Positions 28,642 through 51,078 of a stretch of 64,000 nucleotides of DNA are shown piece by piece. The stretch is from Alcanivorax sp. (GTDB lineage: Bacteria > Pseudomonadota > Gammaproteobacteria > Pseudomonadales > Alcanivoracaceae). The notes below the pieces were generated by a model that was not told the origin of the DNA, ran no database searches, and saw only the letters and a list, made by a program, of their open reading frames with translations. Every line of letters begins with the position of its first letter. The first letter of the stretch is position 1. Location: the NCBI GenBank assembly GCA_013823245.1, contig PNLU01000003.1, positions 4,427 through 68,426 on the forward strand. Direction: 5' to 3'. The translations under genes were made by a program, and so were the position numbers.

Positions 28642-28647
28642 ATAATG

Positions 28648-32518: not shown

Positions 32519-32524
32519 GTTCTC

Positions 32525-33277
32525 TTATATCCCCTCAACATCCATTCCGTGTTCCGCCAGCCAGGCCCTGCGCTGGGCATAGTCGGGCATGGCGCGCTCG
32601 ACGCGTAGCCAGAAGGCAGGGGTGTGGTGCGGCTCGTGCAGATGGGCAATCTCGTGCACCACCACATATTCCGCTATACCCGCCGGCAGCAAGATCGTTT
32701 TCCAGTGGAAGTACAGCCAGTCACCCTTGCCGCAAGAACCCCAGCGATAGCCGAGGTCCTGCACCTTCACGCCAGCCGGTGCTACCTCCATGCGTGACTG
32801 GTAGTCGGCTACCCGGCCCGACAGCCAGACCCGAGCCCGCTCGCTATACCAGCGAATGAAATGCTCCCGTGCGCCTGCCTTCGCATCGTGGCGCAGCGCA
32901 AAGCGGCCACTCACCAGCTTCAAGGGTGCGCCTTGGTCATCGACCAATTTCAGCCGATGGCTGCGCCCCAGATACAGGAAACCCTCGCCATCAACGAACT
33001 CTTTGCGCGGCACCTGCCGTTGTAGCCGATCCTTCTCGGCCAGCTTGGTGTAGATCCAGAAGCGCTTCTCGCTGACAAACTCACGGAGTTGGTCGATGCC
33101 CACATCGGGCGGCGCGCTCACAATCAGCTCCCCCGTTCTTTCCACCGTGATTTGCATCGTCCGGCGCCGAGCACTGCGACGTAGCGTAAACTGCAAGTCG
33201 TCCACGTGGATGCAAGCCTCTGCTTCGGCGGCAGGACTGTTGCCGTGTGGATGGGCCGGTTTCAGCGAAGTCTGCAT
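32525..33277 (-). CDS. M48/SprT-like (YgjP/DUF45) zinc metallopeptidase family protein
   Basis: RWGSC, YVVVHEIAHLHEPHHTPAFW (HExxH); typical partner downstream of hsdR. Confidence 0.88.
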   Translation of the reverse strand: MQTSLKPAHPHGNSPAAEAEACIHVDDLQFTLRRSARRRTMQITVERTGELIVSAPPDVGIDQLREFVSEKRFWIYTKLAEKDRLQRQVPRKEFVDGEGFLYLGRSHRLKLVDDQGAPLKLVSGRFALRHDAKAGAREHFIRWYSERARVWLSGRVADYQSRMEVAPAGVKVQDLGYRWGSCGKGDWLYFHWKTILLPAGIAEYVVVHEIAHLHEPHHTPAFWLRVERAMPDYAQRRAWLAEHGMDVEGI

Positions 33278-33280
33278 GCG

Positions 33281-36200
33281 TTACACCTGCACCAGCTTGT
33301 CGTGGTTGGCGCGCGCCTGTTCCATCAGCCTGTCTGCCAGCACACCCGCCATGTCGGTATCCACCAGGGGTGGCCGCAGGCGCATCAGATGCTCGAACAA
33401 TTGCGTGTTCAAGTCTTCCTGAGCGGCGCGTTTATGGGGGCTCCAGATATCACGGTTGCCTTGCAGCTCTTGCACCAGAAGATCCACCAGTTCCACGGTT
33501 ACATCTTTCAGGCGCAACAGCTGGGTGGCGCTGGGTGTCTGGCCTACGCACACCACATCCAGCAGCGTGCGCAAAAACGGCGCGCAGTGCTCGGGCAGGT
33601 CGCTTGGCGCATCGTCACTCCCGGCCTTGCCGGTGCGCAGCTCGTCGATGATTTTCTGCAGCTGCGAGATTACCTCGCTCCACTGCTCGCCGAGCGTTTT
33701 CAGAATGTCGTTCAAACGCTCCGAAAGTTTGCGGTACAGCACCGGGTCTTCATCGACGTGCTTGCGGATGTGTGAGCGAATCGCGTGTTCCATCTCCGAA
33801 GCCACTGCGCGACTGGCTTCCGCACCGGCGTCATCGGCGGTCTTTCGCAGATGCTTTTCAAAGGCCACATCGGTGAGCTGAATCGGTGGGATCTTAGGAT
33901 CGATGCCCAGCGAGATCACATGGTCGTCAATCAGCTTGCGCACTTTGGCGCCGACATCCTTGCCCAGTACCGGCGTGTCCTTGTAGCGGTTACGGGCGCG
34001 GGCGTAGATATAAGCAAGCTTCTTGGCGTCCTTGGTGTAGGGCAAGCCCTCTGGTCGTGGCAGCACCGTATCCAGTGACCCGAGGAAGGCCTTGAGCTTG
34101 ACGGCAAACTCGGCGCGCAGCTTCTCGCTGCGCAGCGCCTCGATGCAGGCTTCGCTGTCCTCCAGCGATTCAATACCGCGCTGGCGGAACAGATCCACCA
34201 GGCGCAGATGGCGGTCGCGCAGTATCGGCACCTCGTCCTTCAGGCTGGCCAGCGCGCCTGCTACGTCTTCATCGGCGTAGGCCGCCAGCGCCTCCTTCAA
34301 ATGCTGCGCCACGCCGTAGTAGTCCACCACGATGCCGCAGCGCTTGCCGAAGCCGGTGCGGTTGACGCGAGCAATCGCCTGCAGCAATTCCGCCTCGCGG
34401 ATCGGTCGGTCAAGGTACATCACGCCCTCGATCGGCGCATCAAAGCCGGTGAGCAACATCGATTTCACCACCAGGAAGGCCAGCGGGTCGGTCTTCTCGG
34501 GCCTGGCATTGAACAAGGGCTTTTTGAAGCGCTTGATCAGCTGGTCGTGCGCCGTGCCATCGGTCCACGGCTTCCAAGCCGGGTCGTCGTTGTTGCTGCC
34601 CGAAATGATGGGCGCGAATTCAATGCGCGCCAGGGTGTCGCGGTAGCGCCAGGCCTGCACCACCGCCTGGATGCTCACCGAGCGCTGACACAGCGCCTCG
34701 TCATCCAGCGCCTTGTCCCCGGGAGAAAGCGCGTGGGCCTCGGCCAACAGCTCATCGCGGGCTGACCGCAGGGCCTCGAAATATCGAATCGCCGCCAACC
34801 GGCTGTACGCCACCACCTGTGCCTTGTAACCGTTGGGCAGGATGTTGGTCACGTAGTGGCGCAAGATGTCGCGCGCCTTGTCGGCGATCAGCGCCGGGGC
34901 GTCAAAGATGTGGCCCTTGGTGGCGTACTTCTTCTTAATGGCCTCCAGCTCTTCGGGGCTGTGCTGACGGAACAGGTCCTCAAACAGCTCGTCCAGGCTG
35001 GCGCCGTCCTTGATAGCGCCGCTGGCTGTGCGGCCCTCGTAGAGCACCGGCACCGTGGCACCGTCGGCCTCAGCTTCCTTGATGGTGTACTTGTCGATGA
35101 ACTCGCCAAAGATCTCGTGGGTGCGCTTTTTGTCGCCCATGATGATCGGCGTGCCGGTAAAGCCGATGCGTGCGCAGTTGGGCAGGCCCGCCAACAGGTT
35201 GGCATGCAGGTCGCCCGCCTGGGTGCGGTGCGCCTCGTCCACCAGCACGAGGATGCTATCGTCCTCGTTCAGCACCTCGAACTTTTCGTCGGGTTTGTAG
35301 GGGGCCTTCGGTTCTTTTACGCTGGGTTCGGGCACCTTCGGCAGATCGTCTGCGGTCAGCGGCGCATCACCGACGCTGTCCGGGTCGCGGTATTTTTGAA
35401 TGGTGGCAAAGATCAGCCCCGGGCCCTTACGCCGCGCCAGCGCCTTCACGCCGTGGGTGCTCTCGGCCACATCCACCACCTCGCCGGTCAGCGTGGCGGT
35501 CACCGACAACTGGCCCTGCAGGTCCTTGCGGTCGGTGACGACGATAACCTTGAAGCGCCGCAGTTGCGCGTCCGCGCGCATCTTGCGCACCAGGAACACC
35601 ATGGTCAGCGATTTGCCCGAGCCCTGGGTGTGCCAGATGATGCCGCCGCGCTGGTCGTGTTCGCCGTGCTGCAGCCGCGTCGGACCGGTCTTGAGGCACG
35701 CAATCGCCCGATTCACTGCCCGGTACTGCTGGTAGCGGCACACCGTCTTGACGGTCTGGCCGCCGGTCTGCATGAACAACATGAAGTTTTTCACCACATC
35801 CAGCAAATGCGCGGGGGCCAGCAGCCCGGCGATCAGACGTTCCTGCTCGGAGAGGGCTGGCTTGCCGAGTGCCTGCGCCACCTCGATCTCACTGCCCGTC
35901 CCATCCGGGCCGACCACCGTTTTCCACTGCGCGTAGTGCTCAAAAGCTGCGCCCACGCAGCCTACCCGCGCCTCGTCGAAGCTGGTGGCCACCAATAGCT
36001 GGTTGGTGGCGAACAAAGACTCGTTGCCCTCGTTGTCATCAACCTCGAAGGCGGCCTTGCGCTGGTTGCTGTAGCGCCGCAGTTGGTCCACCGCCTCGGC
36101 CAGCGGCTCGGGGACGGACGGGCTCTTGCACTCCACCACCACCAGCGGGATGCCGTTCACCAGCAGTACCAGATCGGGCACGATGAATTGCTTGGCGCTG

Positions 36201-36631
36201 TTGAAGCCGGGCGGGCAATCCACGCGGTACTGGTTGATCACCGTAAAGCGGTTGTTGGCCGGGGTGTCCCAGTCGATGTAGCGGAGGGTCTGGCCGCGCC
36301 CACCGTCCCAGCCGGGCAGGCCCTCCACCGTCAGGCCACAGATCAACAACGAGGTCGCCTTTTCGTTGGCCTCCATCAACTTGTGAGTGCCCAGCCGGGT
36401 GATGGCGGATACCGCCTCCGACAGCCGCGCCTCGTCCAGCCAGGGCGCACCGTCAGGCCCCAGGTTCAGCGCGCGCAGTTGATCGCGTAGCACCCCCTCC
36501 TGAATAACGTCGGTAAAACTGGCTCGACCCGTGACTGATGGGGCATCAAGACTGCCCGCGTTATAGCCCCAACCGAGTGCCTGCAACTGGGTTACGAAGG
36601 GTTTTTCAACGTCATCAAGTTCCCAGCCCAT
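33281..36631 (-). CDS. hsdR: Type I restriction enzyme R subunit (~1116 aa)
   Basis: PDLVLLVNGIPLVVVECK nuclease, HTQGSGKS, DEAH, FTGTP, MLLTGFDAP and QAIARVNR. ATG at 36631 overlaps the hsdS TGA. Confidence 0.95.
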   Translation of the reverse strand: MGWELDDVEKPFVTQLQALGWGYNAGSLDAPSVTGRASFTDVIQEGVLRDQLRALNLGPDGAPWLDEARLSEAVSAITRLGTHKLMEANEKATSLLICGLTVEGLPGWDGGRGQTLRYIDWDTPANNRFTVINQYRVDCPPGFNSAKQFIVPDLVLLVNGIPLVVVECKSPSVPEPLAEAVDQLRRYSNQRKAAFEVDDNEGNESLFATNQLLVATSFDEARVGCVGAAFEHYAQWKTVVGPDGTGSEIEVAQALGKPALSEQERLIAGLLAPAHLLDVVKNFMLFMQTGGQTVKTVCRYQQYRAVNRAIACLKTGPTRLQHGEHDQRGGIIWHTQGSGKSLTMVFLVRKMRADAQLRRFKVIVVTDRKDLQGQLSVTATLTGEVVDVAESTHGVKALARRKGPGLIFATIQKYRDPDSVGDAPLTADDLPKVPEPSVKEPKAPYKPDEKFEVLNEDDSILVLVDEAHRTQAGDLHANLLAGLPNCARIGFTGTPIIMGDKKRTHEIFGEFIDKYTIKEAEADGATVPVLYEGRTASGAIKDGASLDELFEDLFRQHSPEELEAIKKKYATKGHIFDAPALIADKARDILRHYVTNILPNGYKAQVVAYSRLAAIRYFEALRSARDELLAEAHALSPGDKALDDEALCQRSVSIQAVVQAWRYRDTLARIEFAPIISGSNNDDPAWKPWTDGTAHDQLIKRFKKPLFNARPEKTDPLAFLVVKSMLLTGFDAPIEGVMYLDRPIREAELLQAIARVNRTGFGKRCGIVVDYYGVAQHLKEALAAYADEDVAGALASLKDEVPILRDRHLRLVDLFRQRGIESLEDSEACIEALRSEKLRAEFAVKLKAFLGSLDTVLPRPEGLPYTKDAKKLAYIYARARNRYKDTPVLGKDVGAKVRKLIDDHVISLGIDPKIPPIQLTDVAFEKHLRKTADDAGAEASRAVASEMEHAIRSHIRKHVDEDPVLYRKLSERLNDILKTLGEQWSEVISQLQKIIDELRTGKAGSDDAPSDLPEHCAPFLRTLLDVVCVGQTPSATQLLRLKDVTVELVDLLVQELQGNRDIWSPHKRAAQEDLNTQLFEHLMRLRPPLVDTDMAGVLADRLMEQARANHDKLVQV

Positions 36632-37840
36632 CAGGCGCTCCTCTTTTGTTGTACTGCTTCGGCAAGCAATGCCGTGACGCGGACGCGGCCGGTGAGGAGA
36701 TCGTCCATGAGGCCCGTCTTCTCTGCCCAAAGCTTCTCGATGCTTTGTTCCTCCAGACGAAGGCGGGTTTCAATTGCATCCACACGCTCCATGAGCAACC
36801 GTTGCTCTTCAAGCACCGGGACCGCTAAGCGTAGGTTTCGAACATCACGAAGTGTGACTTTCGGTCGCGTCACCCCCGCCGTGATTTGCTCTACTTGTTT
36901 GGCGACTGATGGAGCATTGATAAAGACCGACATCCATCCGGGAAGGATTCGGCCCAGGTTAGGCCGCAATCGGACAATGTCTGCAGTCACTACACCATTC
37001 GGCATCGAAGCTGGATAGACGGCGGCAACACAGGGTGGAAGCCCCATTTTTGTAGCCACGACGTCGCCTGGTACTACCTCGTGTGCAGCGAGCGCCTGTG
37101 CCTTTCTGCCGCTCACATAGACGTTGCTCTTCCAGATCAGACAGCCCGGCTTTACGTCCCGAACGAACACGACCGGAACACCCGTTGCTCGATAATCAGA
37201 CGCCACGAGATCGCTTCCAAACGGCCCGATTACGGAGCTCGTCGTGAGATTTGAGACGAAATCGACTTTCCACTCTTTCGGGATCCACCCCAGCGGCGAC
37301 TGCTTGTAGAGATGCGGCGCCTCGGCCTGGGGCGGGCGCAGTTCGCCGTTGGCGTCGATGCCGCACGTCAGCAGGTCGTGCAGCAGGCCCTGCTTGACGG
37401 CCTTGAGCTTGGCGATGATCGCCTCGGTTTGGTGGATGGCGGTGTCGAGGGTGTCGAGGATTTGGGCGATCTGCTGCCGCTCAATCAGCCGAGGACGGTC
37501 AACAGTTAGTGCATAGGCGTCGTTTCGATTCAGGCCAGGAACACCCGTTGAGCTATCAAGTCGCGTCAACGGCAACCATTTCAAAATCCAATAGATCCAC
37601 CGTCTATCCTCGGGGGCACAGTTTACCCAATACGTCGTATCAATTGGCCAGAACGGCTCGTCTGACCACGTGACTTTCCCGACACTGCCCTTGCGCCCTA
37701 CGATGATGCCGGGCTCCGGGATCAAGTACTTGTGGTGTCTTCCAACTTCGCCATTCGATCCAAAAACAGGAAAGCCGTGACCGGAGCGCGCCTCAGCAGG
37801 CATTGCTTCGCCATACTCAAGGATCAGTATCGAACCCAAC

Positions 37841-37848
<8 letters not shown>
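36631..37848 (-). CDS. hsdS: Type I R-M specificity subunit
   Basis: Two TRDs, each followed by a conserved helix (EQ..I..ILD.LD..I...E....[13 protein letters not shown]; [15 protein letters not shown]), joined by [13 protein letters not shown]. Confidence 0.93.
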
Positions 37849-40366
<2,518 letters not shown>

Positions 40367-40424
40367 GTCAAAAGTCCAGTCAAAGTCGGTTTTTCTGTTT
40401 TGTTCGTTCGCTGGGCGCGCTGCA

Positions 40425-41339
40425 TCAGTTGGCCTTGCCCAGAATGTTTTGTGAGCCTGGCGAGCGGTAGCCCGGCGCCAGCACGGCATTTTTTACACCG
40501 TACAACACCAGATGATCTTTCAACCATAACCGGTATTCGTAGCCACGCAGGCTGTGGTCAGGGGAGCAGTCGACGCTCCATTTGCGCAGGATGTATCCAG
40601 CCGTAGCCGCGCGCAGCTTCATCCGCAGCACGCCACCTTGCATGCTGTAGTCCATCTCAGTGATCTCTGGTCGGGGTTGATCCGGGTGCGGCACCAGCTC
40701 CAGCTCGACGATGCGGGTCCATTGGATGTCCTGATCGCTCCTCTCGCAGGGCGCCACTGGCTGCCCCTTGAGCACCACAGGCTTCTTGATCCGGGTGATG
40801 ACGAAATCCCTGAACCCCTGGGTTTTGCGATCAAACGCACGGACGTGCCAGCGCAACCCGGTGTCGATCAACGCAAACGGGACGATCTCACGCTCAGTCT
40901 CGCCACTCGACAAGGAGTGGTAGGCGACTTTCAGCGGGCGCTCCTGGTGGATGGCCCGCGTGACGCATGCGAGAGTGTCGAGACCTGGTTTTGTGAGCCT
41001 GGAAGGGACCTCACAGGTAATCCAGGACTTGAGGGCGGAAGGCTCACCGTCACCGAAGCCCTGTGACAGCCACGCCAAGACCCGCTCTGCCGGGAAGTCA
41101 AAGACGGGCGCAAAACCGTCTGCGCACCCGTACACCTTGTTCTTAGTGTCGTAGTCCAGATTGCCTGGGGCGAGATCCTTGTAGATCCCGATATCCCGGG
41201 TTGCCGCCGCCACCTGTATGCCGAAACGCGACACCAGATCTTGACGACGAATCTCTCCGATGAAGCGCAGGCGCAACTCGATGAACGCAAGCCGGTCGCG
41301 CTGGGGCTGGGTCAGGTCTGCAAGCTGTTCGTTGGACAT
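40425..41339 (-). CDS. wHTH-WYL-WCX transcriptional regulator (BrxR/CapW-like)
   Basis: N-terminal wHTH ([20 protein letters not shown]...AATRDI..Y) and WYL core (YHSLSSG...R.IVPFAL...RWHVRAFD...FRDFVITRI); first gene of the defence operon. Confidence 0.88.
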
Positions 41340-41511
41340 CCTGGCTGCCGCTTCGGGTTAATGATCGCCAGTTCATACTTTAATGATCAGTATATTCCTC
41401 ACACTATAATCTGTCGATAAATTGACGCTGCGTAGGAGTCCATCGCATTTTATTACTTACATAGGGCCACAATGAGCGGGGGCCGATGGGAAAGCAGGCC
41501 TTTGCCAAAAT

Positions 41512-41567
41512 TGGGTGTAAATGGGCGTCTTAGTGGATGCACCTCGAAAATGGGTGTAAATGGGCGT
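41512..41567 (+). repeat. Perfect 17-bp direct repeat upstream of fic
   Basis: TGGGTGTAAATGGGCGT at 41512-41528 and 41551-41567; the second copy ends 11 bp before the ATG. Confidence 0.85.
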
Positions 41568-41578
41568 AGTATTGGTTC

Positions 41579-42628
41579 ATGCTGAAAACTGACACCATCC
41601 AGATCACCCCGGAGATGCTGAGCCTCATCGCCAGGATCGACGAGTTCAAGGGCGCCTGGCGCGCCTTGGGCACGCTCGCGCCCGACCGGCTGTTGGCCCT
41701 GCGCCGCGTAGCCACCATCGAGAGCATCGGCTCATCGACCCGCATCGAGGGCAGCAAGCTGTCCGACCGGGAAGTGGAGCAGTTGCTGTCGAACCTGGAG
41801 ATCAAGTCTTTTGCTACCCGCGACGAGCAGGAAGTGGCTGGCTACGCCGAGCTGATGGATCTGGCCTTCACGTCCTGGCAGGACATCCCGTTCACAGAGA
41901 ACCACATCAAACAGTTGCACCAGGTCCTGCTGCGCTATAGCGAGAAGGACACCTGGCATCGCGGCAGCTACAAGACCAACTCGAACAGCGTCGCCGCCTT
42001 CGACGAGACCGGCGCGCAGATCGGCATCGTGTTCCAGACAGCGTCGCCCTTCGACACGCCCCGCCTGATGAGGGAGCTGGTGGCCTGGGTGAACCAGGAG
42101 CGCGAGACGGCTCGTCTGCACCCGCTGCTGATCATCGCCCTGTGCGTCGTCGTGTTCCTGGAGATCCATCCGTTCCAGGACGGCAACGGGCGGCTCTCCC
42201 GCGTGCTGACCACGCTCCTGCTTCTGCAGGCCGGTTACGCCTATGTGCCGTACAGCTCGCTGGAAAGCGTGGTCGAGCAAAGCAAGGAGGCGTACTACCT
42301 GGCTTTGCGGCAGACACAGGGCACGATCCGCTCTGATGCACCGAACTGGCAGCCGTGGCTGATGTTCTTCCTGCGCTCTCTGGCCGAGCAGGTACGACGC
42401 CTGGAGAAAAAAGTCGAGCGCGAGAAGATCGTGCTGGCAGCCATGCCGGAACTACAGCTACAGATCGTCGAGTTCGCCCGCGAGCACGGCCGCGTCACCA
42501 TCGGCGAGGCTATCAAACTGACCGGGGCCAGCCGCAACACGCTGAAGCAGCACTTCCGGACACTGGTCGAGCGCGGCACGCTTGCTCAGCACGGCGGTGG
42601 CCGTGGGGTTTGGTACGATCTACGCTGA
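41579..42628 (+). CDS. Fic-domain protein (class II autoinhibited) with C-terminal HTH
   Basis: [12 protein letters not shown] catalytic motif, N-terminal STRIEG inhibitory motif (S/T-xxx-E-G/N), C-terminal wHTH ([30 protein letters not shown]). Confidence 0.92.
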
Positions 42629-42684
42629 GAACTGCGGGACGCGGGTTCGATTCGCGTTCTGTGACCTATCACCGGAGAACCGCC

Positions 42685-43668
42685 ATGCCCCACCCTGCCC
42701 GCCTTTCCATTCTCGACCTGGTCCGCGTCACCGAAGACGGCAGCGTGCGCCAGGCGCTGGACAATGCCCGGGATCTGGCGGCTCATGCGGAGCAATGGGG
42801 CTACCAGCGTTTCTGGGTGGCCGAGCATCACAATATGGAGAGTATCGCCAGCGCGGCGACGTCGCTGGTGATCAGTCATGTGGCGGCGGGTACGCGGCAT
42901 ATTCGTGTCGGTGCGGGCGGCATCATGTTGCCCAACCATTCGCCGCTAGTGATCGCGGAGCAATTCGGCACCCTGGCGCATCTGTATCCGGGCCGTATTG
43001 ATCTTGGTCTGGGGCGGGCGCCGGGGACGGACCAGAACACGCTGCATGCGTTGCGGCGCACGCCGGCGGCATCGGATCGTTTTCCGGAGGACGTGCGCGC
43101 CTTGCAGGCGTTGCTGGCGCCCGCCCAGCCGGGGCAGGCTATTCAGGCGATCCCGGGGGTGGGCACGCAGGTGCCGCTGTGGATTCTCGGCTCCAGCACC
43201 TTTGGTGCGGCGTTGGCGGCGGAGTTCGGTTTGCCCTATGCCTTCGCGTCGCATTTTGCGCCGCAGCAGCTGATGGAGGCGCTGGCGCTGTATCGCCAGC
43301 GCTTCAAGCCTTCCGCGCAGTTGTCCGAGCCTTACGCCATGGTCGGCGTGAATGTGGTGGCGGCCGATTCGGAGCGGGAGGCGAAGCGTCTGGCCACGAC
43401 GCAGCAAATGTCGTTTGCCAATCTGTTACGCGGTGACCGACGCCTGAGCCAGCCGCCGATTGATGACATTGATACCTACTGGTCGCCGCGCGAGAAGATG
43501 CAGGCCAGCCAGATGCTGGCGCGTTCGATCATCGGCACACCGGAAATAGTGCATGCGGGGCTGGAGGCATTGCAGGCGGAAACCGGGGCCGATGAACTGA
43601 TCATCGTCTCGGACATTTATGATCATGCGTCGCGCTTGCGCTCTTTCGAGTTGATCGCCTCACGCTGA
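42685..43668 (+). CDS. LLM-class flavin-dependent oxidoreductase (luciferase-like)
   Basis: [39 protein letters not shown] and PYAFASHF motifs; GGAG RBS. Confidence 0.92.
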
Positions 43669-45068
43669 AGGCGGCCGCTGCGCTTCATGTCGCCCCACTT
43701 GGCCTGTTTGCCGCGCAGCCACTGCAGGGTGCCGCGCACGCGCCACCAGGTGTTGAGCTGCCGGTAACCCAGATTCTCGGCCAGGGCGGCGCCGAACAGG
43801 CGCAGGATGGAGCGCTTGCCGGGGTAGATGCGGAACGACAGCTCTTCCAGCAACAACGCAAACACCGACATGAGAATACCAAGGCCAATAGCCACCAGCA
43901 GAAAGGCGATAATCCATGCCGGGCTGAGGGCACCGGTAAGCGCCATGGTGATCACGAACAGATAACCGCCCAGTTCCAGCAGCGGCCCGATGGCCTCGAA
44001 GATCAGCATGAACGGAAAGGCAAGCCAGCCCACCGTGCCGCCACGGGGATGGCAGCACAGTTTGCTGTTGGCGGACAGGCTTTCCAGCAGGCCCCGCTGC
44101 CAGCGGATACGCTGCGAGCGCAGGGTGGCCAGGTCCTCCGGCGCCTCGGTCCAGCACACCGGGTCCGGCAGAAAATGGATGCGGTAACGGCGCCGGTTCA
44201 GGCGCATGTGCCGATGCAAACGCACCACTAGTTCCATGTCTTCGCCGATGGACTTGTGGCGGTAGCCGCCGACTTCCACCACCACGCTTTTACGAAACAC
44301 GCCGAAGGCGCCGCTGATGATCAGCAGGGCATTCAGGGGTTCCCAGCCCAGGCGACCGAACATGAAGGCGCGCAGGTATTCGATAATCTGCATCAGCGGC
44401 AACCAGCGCTTCGGCAGGCGTGCCTGAAGCAGGTTACCAGCATCCACGTCGCTGCCGTTGGCAATACGCACCGTGCCGCCGGCGGCGATGGTGTCGGGGT
44501 CGTCCACGAACATGCGGATAATGCGCAGCAGGCTGTCGCGCTGGATGATGGAGTCGGCATCCACGCCGCAGAACAGCGGGTAGCGGCTGTAGTTGATGCC
44601 GGCATTCAGGGCATCAGCCTTGCCGCCGTTTTCCTTGTCGATGACTCGCAGTAACGGCTGACTGCGTGAGCGATACACACCGCGCACGCGGGCGGTGGGC
44701 AAACGCTCGTCGGCGGTTTCCGGCACCTGATACAGATCAAACGCCTGCTGCAATACGGCCAGGGTGTTGTCGCGCGAGCCGTCGTTGATCACCACTACTT
44801 CGTGTTCGGGATACGCCAGTTGCAGCATGGCCTGCACCGAGGAAGTAATGTTCGCTTCTTCGTTGTACGCAGGCACCAGCACGGAAATCGGTGGCAGGAA
44901 GGCATGGTAGGGGCGCGGCAGGTACTCCGCGCGGGCGGCACGGGTGTGCTTGCCGATGGCGAGCAGGGCCATCAGATTGAGCATCAGGTAGCCCAGCGCC
45001 AGGGCGATGAAATAGCACAGGAAGAACCACTGCGCCCAGATGATCAGGTCGTCAATCCACGGCATCAA
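43623..45068 (-). CDS. Processive GT2 glycosyltransferase (PgaC/IcaA/NodC/chitin-synthase-like)
   Basis: N-terminal [31 protein letters not shown](E), QRIRW and two C-terminal TM helices. Confidence 0.92.
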
Positions 45069-46147
45069 TCGGGCTCCGACAGAACATGGGCCAGAATCTC
45101 GCGCACCTGGGGTTGATCATGGGCCGTGGCCAGGGTTTCCAGGTCCCGGCGCTCGGCCCCGGGCAGCGCCAGTAATGCCTGGGCGGCGCGATAACGCACC
45201 CACCAGACCGGATCACTGAGCCGTGCCGCCAGCAGGGTGCGATCGCGGGCATCGCCCAGCCGGCCCAGTGATTGCACGGCCTGAACCCGCACGATCCATT
45301 CCGGGTCCGCCACCGCCGCGCGCAGGGTGCCCAGCCATTGCGGGCCGTCGGCACAGGCACATACCGCGCTACGCAGTTCGGTATCTTCAGGAAAGCGTTC
45401 GTTGGCCTGGCGCAGCAGGTCGTCCACCTGGCCCGGTTGCAGGCTGTCGGCGATGCGGATCAGTTTGCGCAGCGCTGCGGCGTCCAGGGGCTGCGCCAGT
45501 GCTTTCAACTGCCGCGCCAGCTCGGGCGCCGGCACTTCCTTGAGCAGGGCACTGACCCGGCTTTCCGACCAGTCGGGCCGATTCAGGCGACTGAAAATTT
45601 CCGGCAAACCGCGCTGGGCATCAATCGCCACCAGTGCCCGGGCGGCTGTCAGGCTGGTGACGCTGTCGCGGTGATCGAGATACGTCAGCACATCGGGCCA
45701 GGCATCATGAATGCGCAGGTTGCCCAGGCAGGTCAGGGCATCCAGGCGGCGATCCGCGCTGCCGCGCCGCAGCCAGCGGCGCAGGTGCGGGACCAGATTG
45801 AGCTGGCGGGCGAGATCGTGCAGTGGGTCGAGGGACACGCCACGCACGGTGTCTTGCAGGGCGTTGCATAGCCCCACCAGCAATGGCAAGTCACGTCGTG
45901 CCACGGATGGCAGCGACGGCGGGCGCTGCCCGGGAGTCGCCGTCAACAGGCCAAACAGGCGCGGTGTCCAGTCACGGCGCAGGGCGGCAGCCCGCTCATC
46001 CAGGCGCACGTGCCGCCAGTGCAGCCAGACGGTCCCCAGCAACATCAGCACCGTGCCGCCCAGCAAACCTGCTGCGGCCAGCAGCACAGCCAGCAAGGCC
46101 GGGTCAGAACCGATAGCGAAGCCCCAGCCGCCATCCGGTGCGTTCAT
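45065..46147 (-). CDS. Membrane-anchored HEAT/ARM-repeat protein
   Basis: One N-terminal TM helix, then helical repeats (RRLDALTCLGNL, VRVQAVQSLGRLG, LSDPVWWVRYRAAQALL); GGGAG RBS inside the upstream gene. Confidence 0.8.
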   Translation of the reverse strand: MNAPDGGWGFAIGSDPALLAVLLAAAGLLGGTVLMLLGTVWLHWRHVRLDERAAALRRDWTPRLFGLLTATPGQRPPSLPSVARRDLPLLVGLCNALQDTVRGVSLDPLHDLARQLNLVPHLRRWLRRGSADRRLDALTCLGNLRIHDAWPDVLTYLDHRDSVTSLTAARALVAIDAQRGLPEIFSRLNRPDWSESRVSALLKEVPAPELARQLKALAQPLDAAALRKLIRIADSLQPGQVDDLLRQANERFPEDTELRSAVCACADGPQWLGTLRAAVADPEWIVRVQAVQSLGRLGDARDRTLLAARLSDPVWWVRYRAAQALLALPGAERRDLETLATAHDQPQVREILAHVLSEPD

Positions 46148-47327
46148 ACAGATCTCCCTGCTCTGTCCAGCCCAGGCGCCAGGTCACACTCCAGTCCGGG
46201 TCGAGAAAATGCTCGCCAAAGACAGAAATGCCGACCACATCCGTGACCAGTACCCCTTGGGGCAACGACTCGATGTCCTTGCCGTAGCCCAGACCCGCCC
46301 CGACATGACTGGTGTCACGGTAGTAGCGACGCGCGTCCAGCACATGCGCCGGGGCGGAGCCGCCGCCGTCCAGGCGGGTAAAAAAGAAGGTGTAGGCATA
46401 ACGCCACTGGCCCCGGTAATGCTCCGCCAGCAGACTGGCCGTGGTGCTGTCGCTGCTTTCGTAATGCGTGCGTCGCACGCCCGGTTGCAGCCCCCAGCGC
46501 GCACGCGGCATCCAGTAGAAACCGGCATAGGCAGACCATTCCGGCCGGATGCGCGCGGTGTCGCTGTAGGTGGCGTCCAGTTGCAACTGTCGTTGCCGCC
46601 CCATGGGCAGGTACACGCCGACGTTGCCTTCCAGGTCATCCTGGTCGAAGCGGCGCGTGTGCCGCGCGCGGGTGTACCAGAGACGATCACGACTGTCCTG
46701 CCATTGCAGGCCGATGTCGGCGCCGCGCCAATCGTCACGGTCGCCACTCAGGTAGTCTTCCTCGTAACCGATGTCGAGTATGCGGCGGCGGCGCCAGGTG
46801 AAGGGCGGCAACGCTTCCTCGGGCCAGGCGTCCGCCACTTCCGGTACCTGGGCGCGGGCCTCGCGGTGGCGCTGCGCGTAGGCCGCCACGTGGCCGGGAT
46901 CACGGGTCTCCCGCGCCCGGGCTTGCAGGACCTGTAATTCAAACGCCCAGACACTGGCGTAATCCGGCGCCTGGGCACGGGCCACCGCCAGCTCCTCCAG
47001 CGCGGCCTCGTTGTCGCCTTGCCAGGCGTACTGCTGGGCCGAGGCAAAGCGGACATCCACATCATCGGGATAATCGGCGATCAGGGCATCAAAACGGGAG
47101 CGCGACCGGGCGTGGTCATTGAGCAGGGCGTCAATGCGGGCCTGCCACAGGCGCGCCGCCGGGTCTGCCGGGCGGGCGCGCAGCACCGCTTCCACCTGGG
47201 CGCGGGCACGATGCAGATCGTGGTTGCCCACGGTTTCACGGACCTGTGCCTGCCAGGCGTCTTCCGCCCAGGCCGGCGCGTGGCTCAGCAGCAGCCCGAC
47301 CATCATCGCCATCAGATACCGCTTCAT
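46104..47327 (-). CDS. TPR + YaiO-family outer-membrane beta-barrel (PgaA/NfrA-like export pore)
   Basis: Signal peptide ending APAWA, TPR-like helices, alternating beta-strand pattern, C-terminal beta-signal RLGLRYRF. Confidence 0.8.
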   Translation of the reverse strand: MKRYLMAMMVGLLLSHAPAWAEDAWQAQVRETVGNHDLHRARAQVEAVLRARPADPAARLWQARIDALLNDHARSRSRFDALIADYPDDVDVRFASAQQYAWQGDNEAALEELAVARAQAPDYASVWAFELQVLQARARETRDPGHVAAYAQRHREARAQVPEVADAWPEEALPPFTWRRRRILDIGYEEDYLSGDRDDWRGADIGLQWQDSRDRLWYTRARHTRRFDQDDLEGNVGVYLPMGRQRQLQLDATYSDTARIRPEWSAYAGFYWMPRARWGLQPGVRRTHYESSDSTTASLLAEHYRGQWRYAYTFFFTRLDGGGSAPAHVLDARRYYRDTSHVGAGLGYGKDIESLPQGVLVTDVVGISVFGEHFLDPDWSVTWRLGWTEQGDLYERTGWRLGLRYRF

Positions 47328-47725
47328 GCGCCGCGCCTCCCCGGCTGGTCGCTACGGCGCACCAGCCGCCTGAGGCGCGCAGTCAGCTCGCCAGGCTGGA
47401 ACGGTTTGACCAGATAATCATCAGCACCCAGATCCAGTGCCCGGACCACATCCTGCTCCTGGGCGCGGGCGGTCAGCATCAGAATCGGGATATCCCCGTG
47501 CTGTTCGCTGGCGCGCAACTCGCGCACCAGGGAGTAGCCGTCCACATAGGGCAACATGACATCGAGCACCGCACAGACAAACGATTGCCCGGCATTGATC
47601 TGCTCGTGGGCCGCCCGGCCATCCCGGACCCAGCGCACCGCAAAGCCTTCGCGACCGAGCAGATACTCCAGCAATTCGCCCACCAGCGGATCATCCTCCA
47701 CCAGCAATATCAGCGGTTCCGCCAC
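47324..47725 (-). CDS. Stand-alone receiver-domain response regulator
   Basis: LLVEDD, VLDVMLP, MLTA and KPF; no output domain (133 aa). Confidence 0.9.
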   Translation of the reverse strand: MAEPLILLVEDDPLVGELLEYLLGREGFAVRWVRDGRAAHEQINAGQSFVCAVLDVMLPYVDGYSLVRELRASEQHGDIPILMLTARAQEQDVVRALDLGADDYLVKPFQPGELTARLRRLVRRSDQPGRRGA

Positions 47726-47727
47726 GA

Positions 47728-48120
47728 CTAGTCCCCCAACTGATGCGCATCCCAGATAATGCGCACACGCTGGGCCAGCTGCATCGGATCAAACGGCTTG
47801 GCGATCACCTCCAGTGCCCCCAGGGCCAGCAACTGGCTGACCTCTTCCGGCTGCACCTTGGCGGTCATGAACACGGCGGGCACGCTCGCCAGAGCAGGTC
47901 GCTCGTGCAGGGCGGCCAGTGTCGTGGGTCCGTCCATGCCCGGCATCATCACGTCCAGAATCATCAACTGGGGCGCAAAGGCTTCCGCCTTGCGCAGCGC
48001 GTCTTCGCCGCTGTGGCAACTGCACAACTCAAAGCCGCCCACGGTTTCCAGAGCCAGTTCTGCCACGGCGCGTATATCCGGTTCATCTTCCACATACAGA
48101 ATGCGTTTGAGTTCAGCCAT
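47728..48120 (-). CDS. Stand-alone receiver-domain response regulator (CheY-like)
   Basis: ILYVEDE, ILDVMMPGMDG, FMTAK and KPFDP; ATG at 48120 overlaps the kinase stop. Confidence 0.9.
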   Translation of the reverse strand: MAELKRILYVEDEPDIRAVAELALETVGGFELCSCHSGEDALRKAEAFAPQLMILDVMMPGMDGPTTLAALHERPALASVPAVFMTAKVQPEEVSQLLALGALEVIAKPFDPMQLAQRVRIIWDAHQLGD

Positions 48121-50992
48121 GGTCGTCTCCGTTGCTCTGCCCACGAGCATGGTGTATCGCGCGGCGCAAGGTTTCCAGTAGAGAAGCGTTAGTCGCTCGG
48201 GATTTGACCAGCGCAGCCACCACGTCGGCCCGCGCTGCCTCATTTTCCTCGATCTCGGCATCCGAGGCCGACAGGATCACCACGGCGGGAGCGGGTGACA
48301 TGCGATTCAGCAGCGGCAGCAGACTGCTGCCTCGCCCGTCCGGCAGCCCCAGGTCCAGCACCACCACATCGTAATCGTGCTGGGCCAGGCAGCGATGCGC
48401 CTCTGCCAGCGTCGGCGCGACGTGAAAATCCGCCAGTTCACGCCCCACCAGCGACAGCACCTGCGCCAGATCCATGTCGTCTTCCACATGCAACACGCGC
48501 GGCCGGTGCCCGTCGCCGGGTTCGGGCAGGCCCAGCCGCAGGGCATCGCGCAAGCGCTGGCGGTCCACCGGCTTGGGCAGCCAGTCCAGCGCCTCCAGGT
48601 CCGCCGACAGTTGCAGTCGCCCGTCGTCCACCGACGCCGCCACCATAATCACCGGCAGCTGCGCCAGCCGCTCGTCACTGCGCAAGGTGCGCATGAAATC
48701 AATCACGCCATCCATATTCACATCCAGCGTGACGGCGGCAAACTCTTCTTCCAGCATCTCCAGCGCCGTCTGCGTATCCGCCGCGCGCTCGGCCTCGTAG
48801 CCTGCATCGTGCAGCAATGCCGCCAGCCGCATGGCCACATCGGCGCGGGCCTCCACCATCAGCAACCGCTCGGAGGTCGACGCCGCCTCTTCCTGTATAA
48901 CAGCCCGTGGCAGGTCGACATAGAAGCAGGCCCCCTGTCCCTCGACCGGCTCCGCCAGCGCCACCTGCCCCCCCATGTGCTCCACCAGCTCCCGCGTGAT
49001 CGCCAGCCCCAGCCCGGTTCCCCCTCGAGGCCGGGTGTCCGAGCTGTCGGCCTGAGTGAAGCGGTTGAACAACTGCTGCCGGAAGGCCTCCGGCACACCG
49101 GGCCCCTGGTCCTTCACGGTAATGCGCACGCCACGTTTGCCCTGGGCCTGCACGCCGACTTCCACTTCACCGCCGGAGGGCGAAAACTTGATGGCATTGG
49201 AGAGCAGGTTGGCCATCACCTGCAGGAAACGATCACCATCCACGCGCACCACGGCCCCCGGCAGGTCGTCGCGCAGTATCAGTTGCGCCTGAAACTGCTG
49301 GGCATAGCCGCGATTGCTTTCAATGGCCTGATGCAGCAGCGGCTGCAGCTCATGATGCTGCATATCAAAGCGCATGCTGCCCGCCGCGATCTTTTCCATA
49401 TCCAGCAAATCGTTGATCAGCAGCGTCAGGCGATCACTGTTCTTGACCGCGATGTCCAGTAACTGCCGGACCGCATCCGGCAGCGAACCGAAGGCGCCAC
49501 CGGTCAGCAAACCCAGCGCGCCCTTGATCGATGTCAGCGGCGTTCGCAGTTCATGGCTGACGGTCGAGACAAACTCTTTCTTGAGCCGTTCGGCCCGCTG
49601 CCGCTCGCTGATATCCTGCACCAGCATCCACACCATTGCTTCACCGTGGCGATCCAGTGTCAGGGAGCCGTTGACCTGCACCGGCAGCCGCGTCCCGTCG
49701 GCACACACCAGCACTTTTTCGTAAGGGCCGTACACGCCGCAGGTATTCAACGTTTCGTAATAGGCGGCTTCTTCGTCCGCGTATTCCGGCGGCGTCAGAT
49801 CCCAGAAGTTCATCGACAGCAACTGTTCCTGGTCGTAGCCGGTCAGTTTCAGAATGGCGTCATTCACTTCCACAAAGCGCCCGTCTGACATGCGATTGAG
49901 CATGATGCCGATAGGGGCGTATTCATACAGTGAGCGAAACTTTTCCTCGCTTTCCCGCAACAGCTCGCGCGACAGGTACAGCTCGGTAATATCAAGGTGG
50001 GTGCCGCTGGCACGCAGGGCCTTGCCGTCGGCATCGCGGGCCATCACGCGCCCACGATCCAGCACCCAGACCCAGTGGCCATCGCGATGACGCATCCGGT
50101 ATTCCGCCTGGTAGCTGTCCGCCTGGCCGGTGAGGTGCCGGACCAGGGCCTCGCGCACCCGGCGGCGATCCTGCGGATGCACCAGCTGGGCGGCGTCACT
50201 CATCGTGTGCACCACCTCTTCAGGTTTATAGCCCAGCATGGCCGCCCAGCGATCGTTGAACACCACCTGATCACCCTTGAGCTGCCATTCCCAGAGGCCC
50301 AGATTGGCACCGGCCATGGCCAGATTGGCGCGCTGCTGTTCACGCTCCAGCCGAGTTTCCAGTTCGACCCGTTCGGTGACATCGGCGAGGCTGCCCACCC
50401 GTTCGCGTGGTATCCCTTCGCCATCACGGATCAAGCGGCAGCGGTCCTCGATCCAGCGCCAACTGCCATCAGCGTGCAGGAAACGATAGCTGCTGACATG
50501 CTGGTCCTGCTCCCACTCGGTCCATTCGAGCGTACCCACACGCGTTTGGTCCTCCGGGTGTATCCGGCGGCTCCACCAGCGCACCTCAAGCACATCGGGG
50601 GTCACGGCGTAACCCAGCATGGTGGTGAAGTTGGGGCTGATATAGGTGAGTTCACGGTTGCCGAGGCGAGCGCTGTAAATCACGGCCGGGGCGGTGTGCA
50701 TCAGGCTGTCCAGTCGCTGGCGCTGGTCGGCCAGCAGGTCGCGTTCGGCGCGCAACCGGGCGTTGGCCGTGCGGATACGCCGGTCCATGAGCCGGCGGGC
50801 CTGACGGAACGCCCAGACCACTGCCAGACACACGATCAGTACGATCACCGCACTGATATACAGCGCGACCAGATCGCCTGTCGGCGCCAGTTCCTCGTGC
50901 ACGGCGTTCGCCGGCATACTGAGCATGCCCTGAAGCGCAACGGCTGCCGCGGCATGACAGGGCAACCGCCAAAGGATTGTTTTCAACACCAT
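48113..50992 (-). CDS. Membrane hybrid histidine kinase: 3 PAS/PAC, HisKA, HATPase and 2 REC domains
   Basis: PAC motifs (DGSWRW, RDGHWVW), H-box SHELRTPLTSI, N box NLLSNAIKF, G boxes DQGPG and GTGLGL, two receiver folds. Start could be ATG 50992 or GTG 51007. Confidence 0.92.
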   Translation of the reverse strand: MVLKTILWRLPCHAAAAVALQGMLSMPANAVHEELAPTGDLVALYISAVIVLIVCLAVVWAFRQARRLMDRRIRTANARLRAERDLLADQRQRLDSLMHTAPAVIYSARLGNRELTYISPNFTTMLGYAVTPDVLEVRWWSRRIHPEDQTRVGTLEWTEWEQDQHVSSYRFLHADGSWRWIEDRCRLIRDGEGIPRERVGSLADVTERVELETRLEREQQRANLAMAGANLGLWEWQLKGDQVVFNDRWAAMLGYKPEEVVHTMSDAAQLVHPQDRRRVREALVRHLTGQADSYQAEYRMRHRDGHWVWVLDRGRVMARDADGKALRASGTHLDITELYLSRELLRESEEKFRSLYEYAPIGIMLNRMSDGRFVEVNDAILKLTGYDQEQLLSMNFWDLTPPEYADEEAAYYETLNTCGVYGPYEKVLVCADGTRLPVQVNGSLTLDRHGEAMVWMLVQDISERQRAERLKKEFVSTVSHELRTPLTSIKGALGLLTGGAFGSLPDAVRQLLDIAVKNSDRLTLLINDLLDMEKIAAGSMRFDMQHHELQPLLHQAIESNRGYAQQFQAQLILRDDLPGAVVRVDGDRFLQVMANLLSNAIKFSPSGGEVEVGVQAQGKRGVRITVKDQGPGVPEAFRQQLFNRFTQADSSDTRPRGGTGLGLAITRELVEHMGGQVALAEPVEGQGACFYVDLPRAVIQEEAASTSERLLMVEARADVAMRLAALLHDAGYEAERAADTQTALEMLEEEFAAVTLDVNMDGVIDFMRTLRSDERLAQLPVIMVAASVDDGRLQLSADLEALDWLPKPVDRQRLRDALRLGLPEPGDGHRPRVLHVEDDMDLAQVLSLVGRELADFHVAPTLAEAHRCLAQHDYDVVVLDLGLPDGRGSSLLPLLNRMSPAPAVVILSASDAEIEENEAARADVVAALVKSRATNASLLETLRRAIHHARGQSNGDDHG

Positions 50993-51078
50993 GCTGTCCC
51001 TGCGCACCTGCTGATCCCCCGGTCACGAGGGTCTGCCCCAAAGCCTACGCCATCGCACCAGCAAGTTGCACCCCGGGT

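Follow-up and report, generated by a model that had tools for sequence, protein, structure and literature searches.

An operon of Alcanivorax sp. appears to encode a synthase-dependent exopolysaccharide machine controlled by a phosphorylated, output-less receiver and not by c-di-GMP. We give this reading, machine and switch together, a probability of roughly 60%. The synthase would be a processive family-2 glycosyltransferase (GT2), its obligatory partner a HEAT-repeat inner-membrane protein, and its pore a TPR-YaiO outer-membrane protein. The phosphorylated form of one stand-alone receiver, REC_B, would act on the HEAT-GT2 pair from the cytoplasmic side, with the C-terminal tail of GT2 being part of the switch. 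Comparison of loci supports a genetic tie between an output-less receiver and the HEAT-GT2 pair across several phyla.

Organization of the operon

We analyzed a window of 64,000 nucleotides, the whole stretch to which all positions refer. Six overlapping or abutting genes lie on its minus strand in the order PAS hybrid histidine kinase, REC_A, REC_B, TPR-YaiO barrel, HEAT, and GT2 (Table 1). The kinase, the two stand-alone receivers, the HEAT protein, and the GT2 listed in an earlier note on this DNA are thus all present, on the minus strand. The kinase and REC_A genes overlap by 8 nt, REC_A and REC_B are separated by a 2-nt gap, REC_B and the outer-membrane protein gene share an ATGA, and the latter overlaps the HEAT gene by 44 nt. 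The HEAT/GT2 junction reads TGATG, an overlap of 1 nt with the ATG start of GT2 or 4 nt with a TTG start. A domain scan of the operon proteins found no c-di-GMP module (PilZ, GGDEF, or MshEN), and the operon encodes no modifying enzyme.

Table 1. Features of the operon, with positions in the window.
Feature	Position	Strand	Length	Basis or detail
GT2, processive family-2 glycosyltransferase	43623..45065 (45068 with TTG start)	-	480 aa from ATG	Pfam GT2 families
GT2 tail motif WGxMxR (W457-G458-D-M460-K-R462)	43680..43697	-		tail listings, contingency over loci
HEAT-repeat inner-membrane protein	45065..46147	-	360 aa	PF13646 (HEAT_2)
HEAT TM helix, about residues 17-41	46025..46099	-		hydropathy; predicted N-out/C-in
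TPR-YaiO outer-membrane protein	46104..47327	-	407 aa	PF19413, 75.3 bits; TIGR04390, 137.8 bits (cut-off 32 bits)
REC_B, single-domain receiver, OmpR/PhoB type	47324..47725	-	133 aa	Pfam, 97.1 bits
REC_A, single-domain receiver	47728..48120	-	130 aa	Pfam Response_reg, 86.9 bits
Hybrid sensor histidine kinase	48113..51007 (alternative ATG start at 50992)	-	964 aa from GTG start	Pfam and NCBIfam scans, receiver alignment

The synthase, its partner, and the putative pore

GT2 carries the motifs DGSRD, DADS, GEDME, and QRIRW, and has one plus two TM segments; at its C-terminus it has an amphipathic helix and a basic tail. Its AlphaFold 2 (AF2) model has a pLDDT of 91.0, and its closest structural matches are to hyaluronan, cellulose, and chitin synthases; a sequence search of the PDB matched BcsA. 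Topology prediction places the basic tail in the cytoplasm. Across 58 homologues W457, G458, and R462 of the tail are invariant and M460 is conserved in at least 90%. The pLDDT falls to 69-73 around the WGxMxR motif, versus 91 for the whole protein, and in this model the segment is probably flexible.

The HEAT protein was described earlier as one TM helix and a large repeat solenoid overlapping the GT2 start, and the AF2 model (pLDDT 92.3), hydropathy, and the gene junction all agree with that description. The model shows one long helix spanning residues 16-69 and, after it, a solenoid made entirely of helices, for which the only fold matches in the PDB are generic HEAT/ARM scaffolds. The count of lysine and arginine is 5.3 after the TM helix versus 0.5 before it, and by this positive-inside measure all 66 of the 66 family members counted are predicted to have a cytoplasmic HEAT domain, as had been supposed. 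By prediction, the HEAT domain therefore shares its compartment with the GT2 tail. The family is large, with about 2005 representatives at E ≤ 1e-30. In one homologue (P0334), the TM helix is preceded by a signal peptide and by an additional N-terminal domain.

The outer-membrane protein has a signal peptide (…APAWA/ED), TPR repeats that match TPR families, and a YaiO-family beta-barrel, which is probably the export pore. Its gene lies inside the region covered by the earlier note and is absent from that note's text.

The receivers and the kinase

REC_A and REC_B each consist of a Response_reg domain alone, without an output domain. In the receiver alignment, both have canonical residues (E11 D12, D54, T84, and K106 in REC_A; D11 D12, D55, T85, and K107 in REC_B), and the best NCBIfam matches to REC_B are OmpR-family receivers. 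The two separate clearly in phylogeny. REC_B falls in a 20-member clade whose members are all cassette-adjacent (SH-like support 0.964). REC_A falls in a separate 6-member clade (support 0.995), in which none of the six is cassette-adjacent and three directly follow a kinase core. The earlier proposal that the HEAT protein is the output of both is not supported by this separation, which shows that the two are not equivalent; judged from the trees, it is REC_B, not REC_A, that has been conserved together with the cassette. In 64 orthologues of the cassette receiver, D11, D12, D55, T85, and K107 are kept in 91-97%. By these sequence criteria, it is one orthologous clade with intact phospho-acceptor chemistry, dedicated to the cassette.

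The kinase has an N-terminal TM segment, three PAS domains, a HisKA domain with the H-box SHELRTP, a HATPase domain, and two receivers, which makes four receiver domains for one kinase, as first noted. The degenerate acidic pocket (VEAR) reported for the first of these is also borne out: the alignment reads LLMVEARAD, with alanine at the T/S position and the acceptor Asp and the Lys kept. The second is canonical (HVEDD...LDLGLP). Pfam and NCBIfam scans found neither an Hpt nor a DNA-binding domain in the kinase. The statement that the system has no Hpt holds within the operon and fails genome-wide, where 10 Hpt matches were found, one of them a stand-alone Hpt on contig C38 (motif HTLKGSSSNLG), along with many further two-component proteins. 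Because the kinase is a hybrid and an Hpt is missing from the operon, phosphate may reach REC_B by more than one route, an Hpt relay among them; the gene order in a Nitrospira relative is HK-Hpt-REC-HEAT.

Conservation of the cassette

Of 87 non-redundant loci, 64 carry a receiver immediately upstream of [YaiO]-HEAT-GT2, and the other 23 lack one. The REC-[YaiO]-HEAT-GT2 arrangement recurs in Pseudomonadota, Nitrospira, Anaeromyxobacter, and Planococcaceae, and the cassette was also found in Rheinheimera, Noviherbaspirillum, Gallionellaceae, alphaproteobacteria, and Bdellovibrionales. Among 60 loci fetched with HEAT as the query, 59 have HEAT immediately upstream of GT2; at the exception (L060), the first GT2 match begins about 160 nt further on. 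Among 151 sampled Xanthomonadaceae genomes, 20 of the 23 GT2-positive ones are also HEAT-positive, and those listed at about 5 Mb (G011, G012, G019, G020, and G022) have no HEAT or close GT2 match. Searches of homologues found no REC-HEAT or REC-GT2 fusion protein, and our literature search found no paper describing a REC-[YaiO]-HEAT-GT2 module.

Mirror-tree analysis gave pairwise distance correlations of r = 0.79-0.90 among REC, HEAT, and GT2, with REC-GT2 the highest at 0.90. The partial correlation is 0.20 for REC-HEAT given GT2 versus 0.73 for REC-GT2 given HEAT; with saturated HEAT distances, these are weak evidence that the receiver is tied to GT2 no less closely than to HEAT.

The WGxMxR motif is present in 61 of the 64 loci with a receiver and absent from 22 of the 23 without one. 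Receiver and tail therefore agree in 83 of 87 loci, and the four discordant loci are three with a receiver and a degenerate tail and one that keeps the motif without a receiver. The tail residues W, M, and R are present in 97-100% of receiver-positive versus 4-35% of receiver-less loci, and in these alignments WGxMxR is the sole strong sequence feature correlated with the receiver. In one Nitrospira locus we predicted a receiver from the tail motif alone, and the locus then read HK-Hpt-REC-HEAT. The strict motif is missing from seven of eight maximal receiver-less clades. However, only four independent contrasts fall on well-supported branches, about three of them in the same direction (sign test, p = 0.25), and on this tree the association rests on few independent events.

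Discussion

Where does the receiver act? The earlier note had a phosphorylated receiver docking on the HEAT solenoid, which would gate the synthase much as PgaD/PilZ partners relay c-di-GMP; taken strictly, both REC_A and REC_B would dock and HEAT would be a dedicated adaptor. Part of this stands, as a receiver is linked to HEAT-GT2 and the solenoid, a protein-binding fold modeled with high confidence, is predicted on the cytoplasmic side. Gene order also speaks for it: in rearranged loci the receiver stays beside HEAT with spacers of 13-80 nt while GT2 lies 1.7-6 kb off, and wherever no YaiO gene intervenes the receiver abuts HEAT (L004, L007, Planococcaceae, L142, L143, L149, and L156-L159). 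The adaptor role itself fares less well. HEAT is kept in all 23 receiver-less loci, some of which are no more than a HEAT-GT2 pair set among housekeeping genes, and is therefore a core partner of the synthase and not a receiver-specific relay. No HEAT column separates loci with and without a receiver beyond a weak R102 (77% vs 22%), the partial correlations lean, weakly, toward GT2, the tail tracks the receiver, and REC_A is not linked to the cassette. Docking on the solenoid is possible, is not favored over docking on the synthase tail, and as a full account of the system we consider it unlikely.

CheY~P binds the N-terminal peptide of FliM, and phosphorylated REC_B could likewise bind the WGxMxR tail directly, leaving HEAT as a receiver-independent structural or co-polymerase subunit. 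The parallel is an analogy only: in both cases a stand-alone receiver would bind a short terminal peptide of a membrane-machine subunit when phosphorylated, but the peptides are unrelated in sequence and the cassette receiver is of the OmpR/PhoB type. This account draws on the tail as the one strong correlate of the receiver, on its basic and probably flexible character, on the REC-GT2 distances, and on a second cassette-family receiver immediately downstream of GT2 in Planococcaceae and L135/L138. Against it are the few independent events, the variant tail of Xanthomonadales and the strict motif of L045, both without a linked receiver, and a gene order that holds the receiver with HEAT and not with GT2. 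We regard it as a tentative possibility. It is improbable, by contrast, that the receivers never touch the synthase and serve as phosphate sinks, in kinase feedback, or on an unlinked effector (a transcription factor or c-di-GMP enzyme), their linkage reflecting co-expression. The four receiver domains per kinase, one degenerate, the REC_A clade near kinases, and the stand-alone Hpt and further two-component proteins of the genome would fit such a role, but in Rheinheimera the cassette receiver accompanies HEAT-GT2 although the nearest 7 kb hold no kinase, the cassette-specific clade spans phyla, and the receiver occurs in step with a trait of the synthase itself.

Among known systems, PgaABCD/IcaADBC, the poly-beta-1,6-GlcNAc system (PgaC-PgaD and the porin PgaA in E. 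coli), shares a membrane-integrated processive GT2 (motifs D, DxD, ED, and QxxRW), an adjacent gene for a small or medium inner-membrane partner, a TPR and beta-barrel exporter, and the post-translational control proposed here. However, our GT2 is 27% identical to E. coli PgaC in the GT domain only and scores 143.9 bits against the NCBIfam PgaC_IcaA equivalog, below its cut-off of 422.3. The YaiO-type barrel has no similarity to PgaA by sequence comparison, the operon lacks a PgaB deacetylase, the partner is a HEAT solenoid where PgaD has two TM segments, and a receiver stands in place of a c-di-GMP component. BcsA-BcsB cellulose synthase has the same synthase fold class, an obligatory single-TM partner, and a regulatory element at the synthase's C-terminus in the cytoplasm, putative in our case. 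There, this element is a PilZ domain gating the active site, whereas here it is a WGxMxR tail of about 30 aa; the bulk of the partner is periplasmic in BcsB and predicted cytoplasmic here, and the signal here is likely a phosphoprotein, not c-di-GMP. The Xanthomonadales variant (HEAT-GT2-TPR/YaiO-sulfatase-family) resembles, by gene count and order alone, xagABCD of Xanthomonas campestris, X. oryzae, and X. citri, a four-gene biofilm glycosyltransferase cluster whose second gene encodes a PgaC-like GT2 (PMC3609779, PMC4643136).

In Myxococcus xanthus, the single-domain protein EpsW, when phosphorylated, activates the priming transferase EpsZ directly (PMC12802240). As in our proposal, exopolysaccharide synthesis there is under post-translational control by a phosphorylated, single-domain regulator that contacts a membrane glycosyltransferase, although that is a Wzx/Wzy pathway with a monotopic phosphoglycosyl transferase and ours is synthase-dependent with a HEAT partner. 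The NCBIfam EpsW equivalog scores 48.8 bits against REC_A (cut-off 200) and is absent from the top 25 listed for REC_B.

In the reading we prefer, the PAS hybrid kinase would phosphorylate REC_B either in one step or by way of the kinase's own receiver and an Hpt encoded elsewhere, and REC_A would be a kinase-associated accessory, either a competing phosphate sink or a kinase modulator. The gene and domain content, the conserved cassette, the receiver clades, the predicted topologies, and the co-occurrence of receiver and tail are observed, whereas this route, contact between the proteins, whether control activates or inhibits, and which polymer is made are inferred. Phosphorylated REC_B would bind the cytoplasmic face of HEAT-GT2 and change synthase activity post-translationally; the WGxMxR tail may be its docking peptide, or may be held by HEAT and then released or captured by the phosphorylated receiver.

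Operon content and gene junctions

Six overlapping or abutting frames occupy 43623-51007 on the minus strand of the window, which has a G+C content of ~64%. They encode a hybrid histidine kinase, two stand-alone receivers (REC_A and REC_B), an outer-membrane barrel protein, a HEAT protein, and a family-2 glycosyltransferase (GT2). See the table for coordinates and junctions. Pfam and NCBIfam recovered every domain named in an earlier note on this DNA, and the receiver residues are as described there; its observation is therefore confirmed. The barrel gene lies inside the interval of that note, though absent from its text. The HisKA H-box and HATPase domain of the kinase, together with the receivers, form a two-component His-Asp system by Pfam and alignment. 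By alignment, three of the four receivers (the second in the kinase, REC_A, and REC_B) have the full canonical set of acidic pocket, phosphoacceptor Asp, Thr/Ser, and Lys. As had been claimed, the first one in the kinase is degenerate: it reads MVEARAD, with Ala in place of the expected Thr/Ser.

No promoter-like sites were found in a promoter scan, and a terminator scan gave fewer terminator-like sites than expected by chance. Directly downstream of the operon is a defence island (28610-42653). Its genes are a plus-strand ORF for a luciferase-like monooxygenase (42355-43668), those for a Fic-domain protein (41579-42628) and a WYL-like protein (40425-41339), and hsdM of a type I R-M system (37841-40489). 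The island may mark the whole region as accessory DNA.

Coordinates of the operon genes in the window and of related features elsewhere
Feature	Location	Strand	Description	Junction with the next operon gene
Hybrid histidine kinase	48113-51007	-	964 aa	8-nt overlap
REC_A	47728-48120	-	130 aa, stand-alone receiver	2-nt gap
REC_B	47324-47725	-	133 aa, stand-alone receiver	ATGA
Outer-membrane protein	46104-47327	-	407 aa; signal peptide, TPR_19/TPR_16, YaiO-family beta-barrel (Pfam, NCBIfam)	44-nt overlap
HEAT protein	45065-46147	-	360 aa	TGATG
Family-2 glycosyltransferase GT2	43623-45065/45068	-	480/481 aa	
Stand-alone Hpt	G000 (the window's own genome) contig C38, L081:3462-4016	-	adjoins a 474-aa GT2/DUF2064-like ORF	
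Xanthomonadales variant	L005:8046-14312, L015:7863-14110, L019, L168		sulfatase-family membrane protein of 816-842 aa, phosphoethanolamine-transferase-like	

The GT2 synthase and the HEAT protein

The GT2 translation contains the motifs of a processive synthase (DGSRD, DADS, GEDME, and QRIRW), falls in Pfam GT2 families, and has a sequence match to BcsA. Its AF2 model (pLDDT 91.0) finds its best fold matches in hyaluronan, cellulose, and chitin synthases, with a TM-score of up to 0.65. A single TM helix at the N-terminus leads into a cytoplasmic GT domain and two more membrane passes; an amphipathic helix (residues 417-450) and a very basic C-terminal tail with 11 K/R in 30 residues follow. 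From the arrangement of membrane passes, the tail is predicted to be cytoplasmic.

The AF2 model of the HEAT protein (pLDDT 92.3) consists of one long helix, residues 16-69, and then a helical solenoid. A PDB fold search returned no specific structural relative, the matches being designed alphaRep, PP2A-A, and importin scaffolds only. In all 66 family members, the Lys and Arg residues following the hydrophobic helix outnumber those preceding it (means 5.3 vs. 0.5), and in one homologue, P0334, the TM helix is preceded by a signal peptide and an additional periplasmic segment; this make-up led us to reject the extension as a fused receiver. On these two grounds, the HEAT protein is predicted to be N-out/C-in with a cytoplasmic solenoid. 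As far as prediction goes, the HEAT domain is thus not periplasmic, a location that the earlier note had held to be incompatible with its model. Four giant proteins of 2543-6021 aa (P0241, P0249, P0361, and P0282) contain 15-37 HEAT-profile stretches each, in an architecture unrelated to the 350-aa family.

Comparison with known exopolysaccharide systems

The operon shares with the synthase-dependent exopolysaccharide systems (Bcs, Pga, Alg, and Pel) an inner-membrane processive GT2 that has its own channel and bears the motifs D, DxD, (T)ED, and QxxRW, as well as an operon-encoded outer-membrane β-barrel with a periplasmic TPR scaffold. However, the barrel family here (YaiO) differs from PgaA, BcsC, and AlgE, and assignment as PgaA, which was compared by sequence, was rejected as there was no similarity. 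We also rejected GT2 as PgaC/IcaA, as its TIGR03937 score of 143.9 bits falls short of the 422.3-bit cut-off and its 27% identity to E. coli PgaC covers the GT domain only. Unlike PgaABCD, the operon has neither a PgaB deacetylase gene nor a PgaD gene. It works like a synthase-dependent secretion system but is not itself a Pga system. Control in the known systems is defined by a c-di-GMP receptor, whereas the operon here has none: searches for PilZ, a degenerate GGDEF I-site, MshEN, and PgaD-type receptors found nothing in the six proteins at E ≤ 0.01, although a cryptic site on HEAT or GT2 is beyond the reach of sequence.

The nearest functional precedent is in M. xanthus, in which EpsW~P activates the priming transferase EpsZ (PMC12802240). 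However, EpsW-EpsZ belongs to a different pathway and has a different target, a monotopic phosphoglycosyl transferase (PGT). REC_A was rejected as an EpsW-type receiver (NF041866; 48.8 bits vs. a cut-off of 200), and the operon contains no PGT gene.

Distribution and cassette architecture

Compared with the HEAT protein of the window, one from Isoalcanivorax indicus shows 86% identity, and those from Alcanivorax show 62-64%. The module is patchy in the window's family, being present in 4/8 genomes of the genus and 0/62 of other genera, and a phylum-wide sample of 401 genomes contained it in 13. The HEAT family as a whole has ~2005 cluster representatives (HEAT profile, E ≤ 1e-30), and the module spans several phyla, with Nitrospira, Gallionellaceae, marine hydrocarbon degraders, and Gram-positive Planococcaceae among its carriers. 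With HEAT as the query, GT2 follows HEAT directly in 59/60 loci; in the remaining locus (L060), the first GT2 match starts ~160 nt on. The window has the same arrangement, a HEAT protein with one TM helix encoded immediately upstream of a GT2 whose relatives are ~50-60% identical. GT2 is conserved at 50-64% identity, far above the ~30% of HEAT.

We classified loci using HMMs built for this analysis (66 HEAT-anchored, 80 GT2-anchored metagenomic, and 37 from species genomes) and retained the 87 with sufficient flank after dropping GT2s >90% identical. A single-domain receiver lies directly upstream of [YaiO]-HEAT-GT2 in 64 of these (REC+) and is lacking in 23 (REC-). Rheinheimera and Noviherbaspirillum carry the four-gene REC-YaiO-HEAT-GT2 cassette alone amid unrelated genes, Anaeromyxobacter has the same gene order, and Planococcaceae have REC-HEAT-GT2-REC without the barrel. 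The window layout recurs in an alphaproteobacterial lineage, complete with hybrid kinase, extra receivers, barrel, HEAT, and GT2.

The loci that lack a receiver include two variants. A Xanthomonadales variant reads HEAT-GT2-TPR/YaiO-sulfatase-family protein, and its GT2 tail is WGx[IV]xRDGSW. This variant matches xagABCD of Xanthomonas in gene count and order, and a relation of the module to that cluster, in which HEAT would correspond to XagA and GT2 to XagB, is possible. Among 151 genomes sampled from the Stenotrophomonas family, HEAT was found in 20 and GT2 in 23, the named matches being Stenotrophomonas and Pseudomarimonas only. Small Burkholderiales genomes contain bare HEAT-GT2 pairs amid housekeeping genes. 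Just downstream of GT2 in REC-less Burkholderiales loci (L025:10574-12010; L029, L031, L032, and L034) is a gene for a 478-aa membrane protein with CHASE3 and two PAS domains and no recognisable output domain, which may serve the HEAT-GT2 synthase as an alternative sensor.

Some copies are damaged. In an uncultured betaproteobacterium (L043:6035-9621), the YaiO, HEAT, and GT2 matches are broken across several frames, and the cassette looks pseudogenised. Four GT2 matches each have one in-frame stop: L177 (genome G264) and L188 (G843) TGA, L195 (G966) TAA, and L196 (G851) TAG. Either sequencing error or decay of the copies could explain these stops.

The two receivers and the phosphate route

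The two stand-alone receivers fell apart in a phylogeny built from 66 receiver domains of the collected loci. REC_B falls in a 20-member clade, all cassette-adjacent (SH-like support 0.964), to which the Planococcaceae cassette receivers are sister (0.916). REC_A falls in a separate 6-member clade (0.995) with no cassette-adjacent member, and three of the six lie directly after a kinase core. REC_B is an OmpR-type single-domain receiver of the cassette clade, encoded directly upstream of the rest of the cassette. The cassette receiver is, judging from its residues, functional as a phospho-receiver, because D11, D12, D55, T85, and K107 are kept in 91-97% of 64 orthologues and it carries the OmpR/PhoB-type alpha4-beta5-alpha5 signature. 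Receivers of the OmpR/PhoB family dimerise upon phosphorylation, and by analogy the cassette receiver probably does so as well.

The earlier note had also stated that there is no Hpt and no DNA-binding domain. This holds for all six operon proteins, in which Pfam and NCBIfam found neither, but the genome does have Hpt domains: a stand-alone one with the sequence HTLKGSSSNLG and nine others. The stand-alone Hpt may serve the hybrid kinase as a shuttle. In a Nitrospira metagenome contig (L165:1-11407), a hybrid GAF-PAS kinase, a 111-aa Hpt, and a REC lie together, the REC directly upstream of HEAT. By contrast, a plain kinase core adjoins the cassette in Gallionellaceae loci, and the Alcanivorax limicola kinase ends in one degenerate receiver. 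Either direct His-to-Asp transfer or a relay via an unlinked Hpt is possible.

Which protein the receiver may act on

The earlier note proposed that a phosphorylated receiver docks on the HEAT solenoid, which then gates the synthase. Gene order favors a REC-HEAT pairing, since REC stays beside HEAT, with a spacer of 13-22 nt, in loci where HEAT and GT2 have been separated. Three opposite-strand genes lie between HEAT and GT2 in the rearranged loci L126/L162-L164 and in L165, where they encode proteins of 643 aa, 786 aa (TPR-YaiO), and 526 aa; a single opposite-strand gene lies between them in L135/L138. However, HEAT is kept, at the same length, in all 23 REC- loci, and a column scan singled out just one HEAT position, R102, as conserved in REC+ rather than REC- loci, and that one weakly (77% vs. 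22%). Therefore, HEAT is a core subunit and not a REC-specific adaptor. The claim that HEAT is the output of both receivers was too specific and is partly contradicted, by these REC- loci and by the REC_A clade, which is not cassette-linked. Overall, the interpretation in the earlier note is partly supported: REC is tied to HEAT by gene order and HEAT is predicted to be cytoplasmic, but HEAT is retained without REC and a GT2 tail tracks the receiver. Mirror-tree correlations (r = 0.79 for REC-HEAT, 0.90 for REC-GT2, and 0.82 for HEAT-GT2; partial correlations 0.73 for REC-GT2 vs. 0.20 for REC-HEAT) were given little weight, because HEAT distances are saturated and all pairs correlate without discrimination. 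We inspected the 120 top-ranking GT2 homologues and the 150 top-ranking HEAT representatives for Rosetta-stone fusions and found none. In GC-rich genomes, open frames of >800 aa surround GT2, but these are out-of-frame artefacts and were rejected as HEAT-GT2 fusions.

The same column scan applied to GT2 showed that W, M, and R in the tail are conserved at 97-100% in REC+ loci vs. 4-35% in REC- loci. We propose the motif, WGxMxR, as the mark of the REC-linked subtype. The window GT2 carries it at residues 457-462 of the 480-aa form, within KWGDMKRSG. Among the 87 loci, it is present in 61 and absent from 3 with a receiver, the three exceptions being degenerate tail variants, and it is present in 1 and absent from 22 without one. 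On a GT2 tree built with the tail left out, REC requires eight or more changes, as does the motif, and the strict motif is absent from 7/8 maximal REC-less clades. A conservative test on well-supported branches gave ~3 concordant and 0-1 opposite contrasts (sign test p = 0.25), and this test could not reach significance because there are only four independent contrasts. Furthermore, Nitrospira-type GT2s carry the tail; a receiver was predicted from the motif and then seen in the widened flank, in the order hybrid kinase-Hpt-REC-HEAT.

On balance, these results support action of the receiver on the HEAT-GT2 complex, with the HEAT solenoid not singled out as the docking site, and point to GT2's own tail as part of the switch. 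In the fullest form of this reading, to which we assign a probability of about 0.35, the phosphorylated stand-alone receiver would, in place of c-di-GMP, gate a widespread class of processive polysaccharide synthases by reading the WGxMxR peptide at their cytoplasmic C-terminus, while the membrane-anchored HEAT solenoid would scaffold the complex. This would be a CheY/FliM-like switch on an exopolysaccharide machine, and lineages losing the receiver would have lost the peptide too.

Significance

The REC-YaiO-HEAT-GT2 module is likely a phosphorylation-controlled synthase, and our literature search found no paper describing it. What is new here is a GT2 tail motif that tracks the receiver, which narrows a vague regulatory role of REC to one that a few point mutants and an assay of peptide binding can address. 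HEAT-GT2 pairs that naturally lack both REC and the tail are built-in controls. To our knowledge, c-di-GMP is the protein-level on-switch of every well-studied synthase-dependent exopolysaccharide system (cellulose, PNAG, alginate, Pel, NfrB, and Pss). If our reading is true, the module would represent a second, phosphorylation-based gating of synthase-dependent exopolysaccharide enzymes, independent of c-di-GMP.
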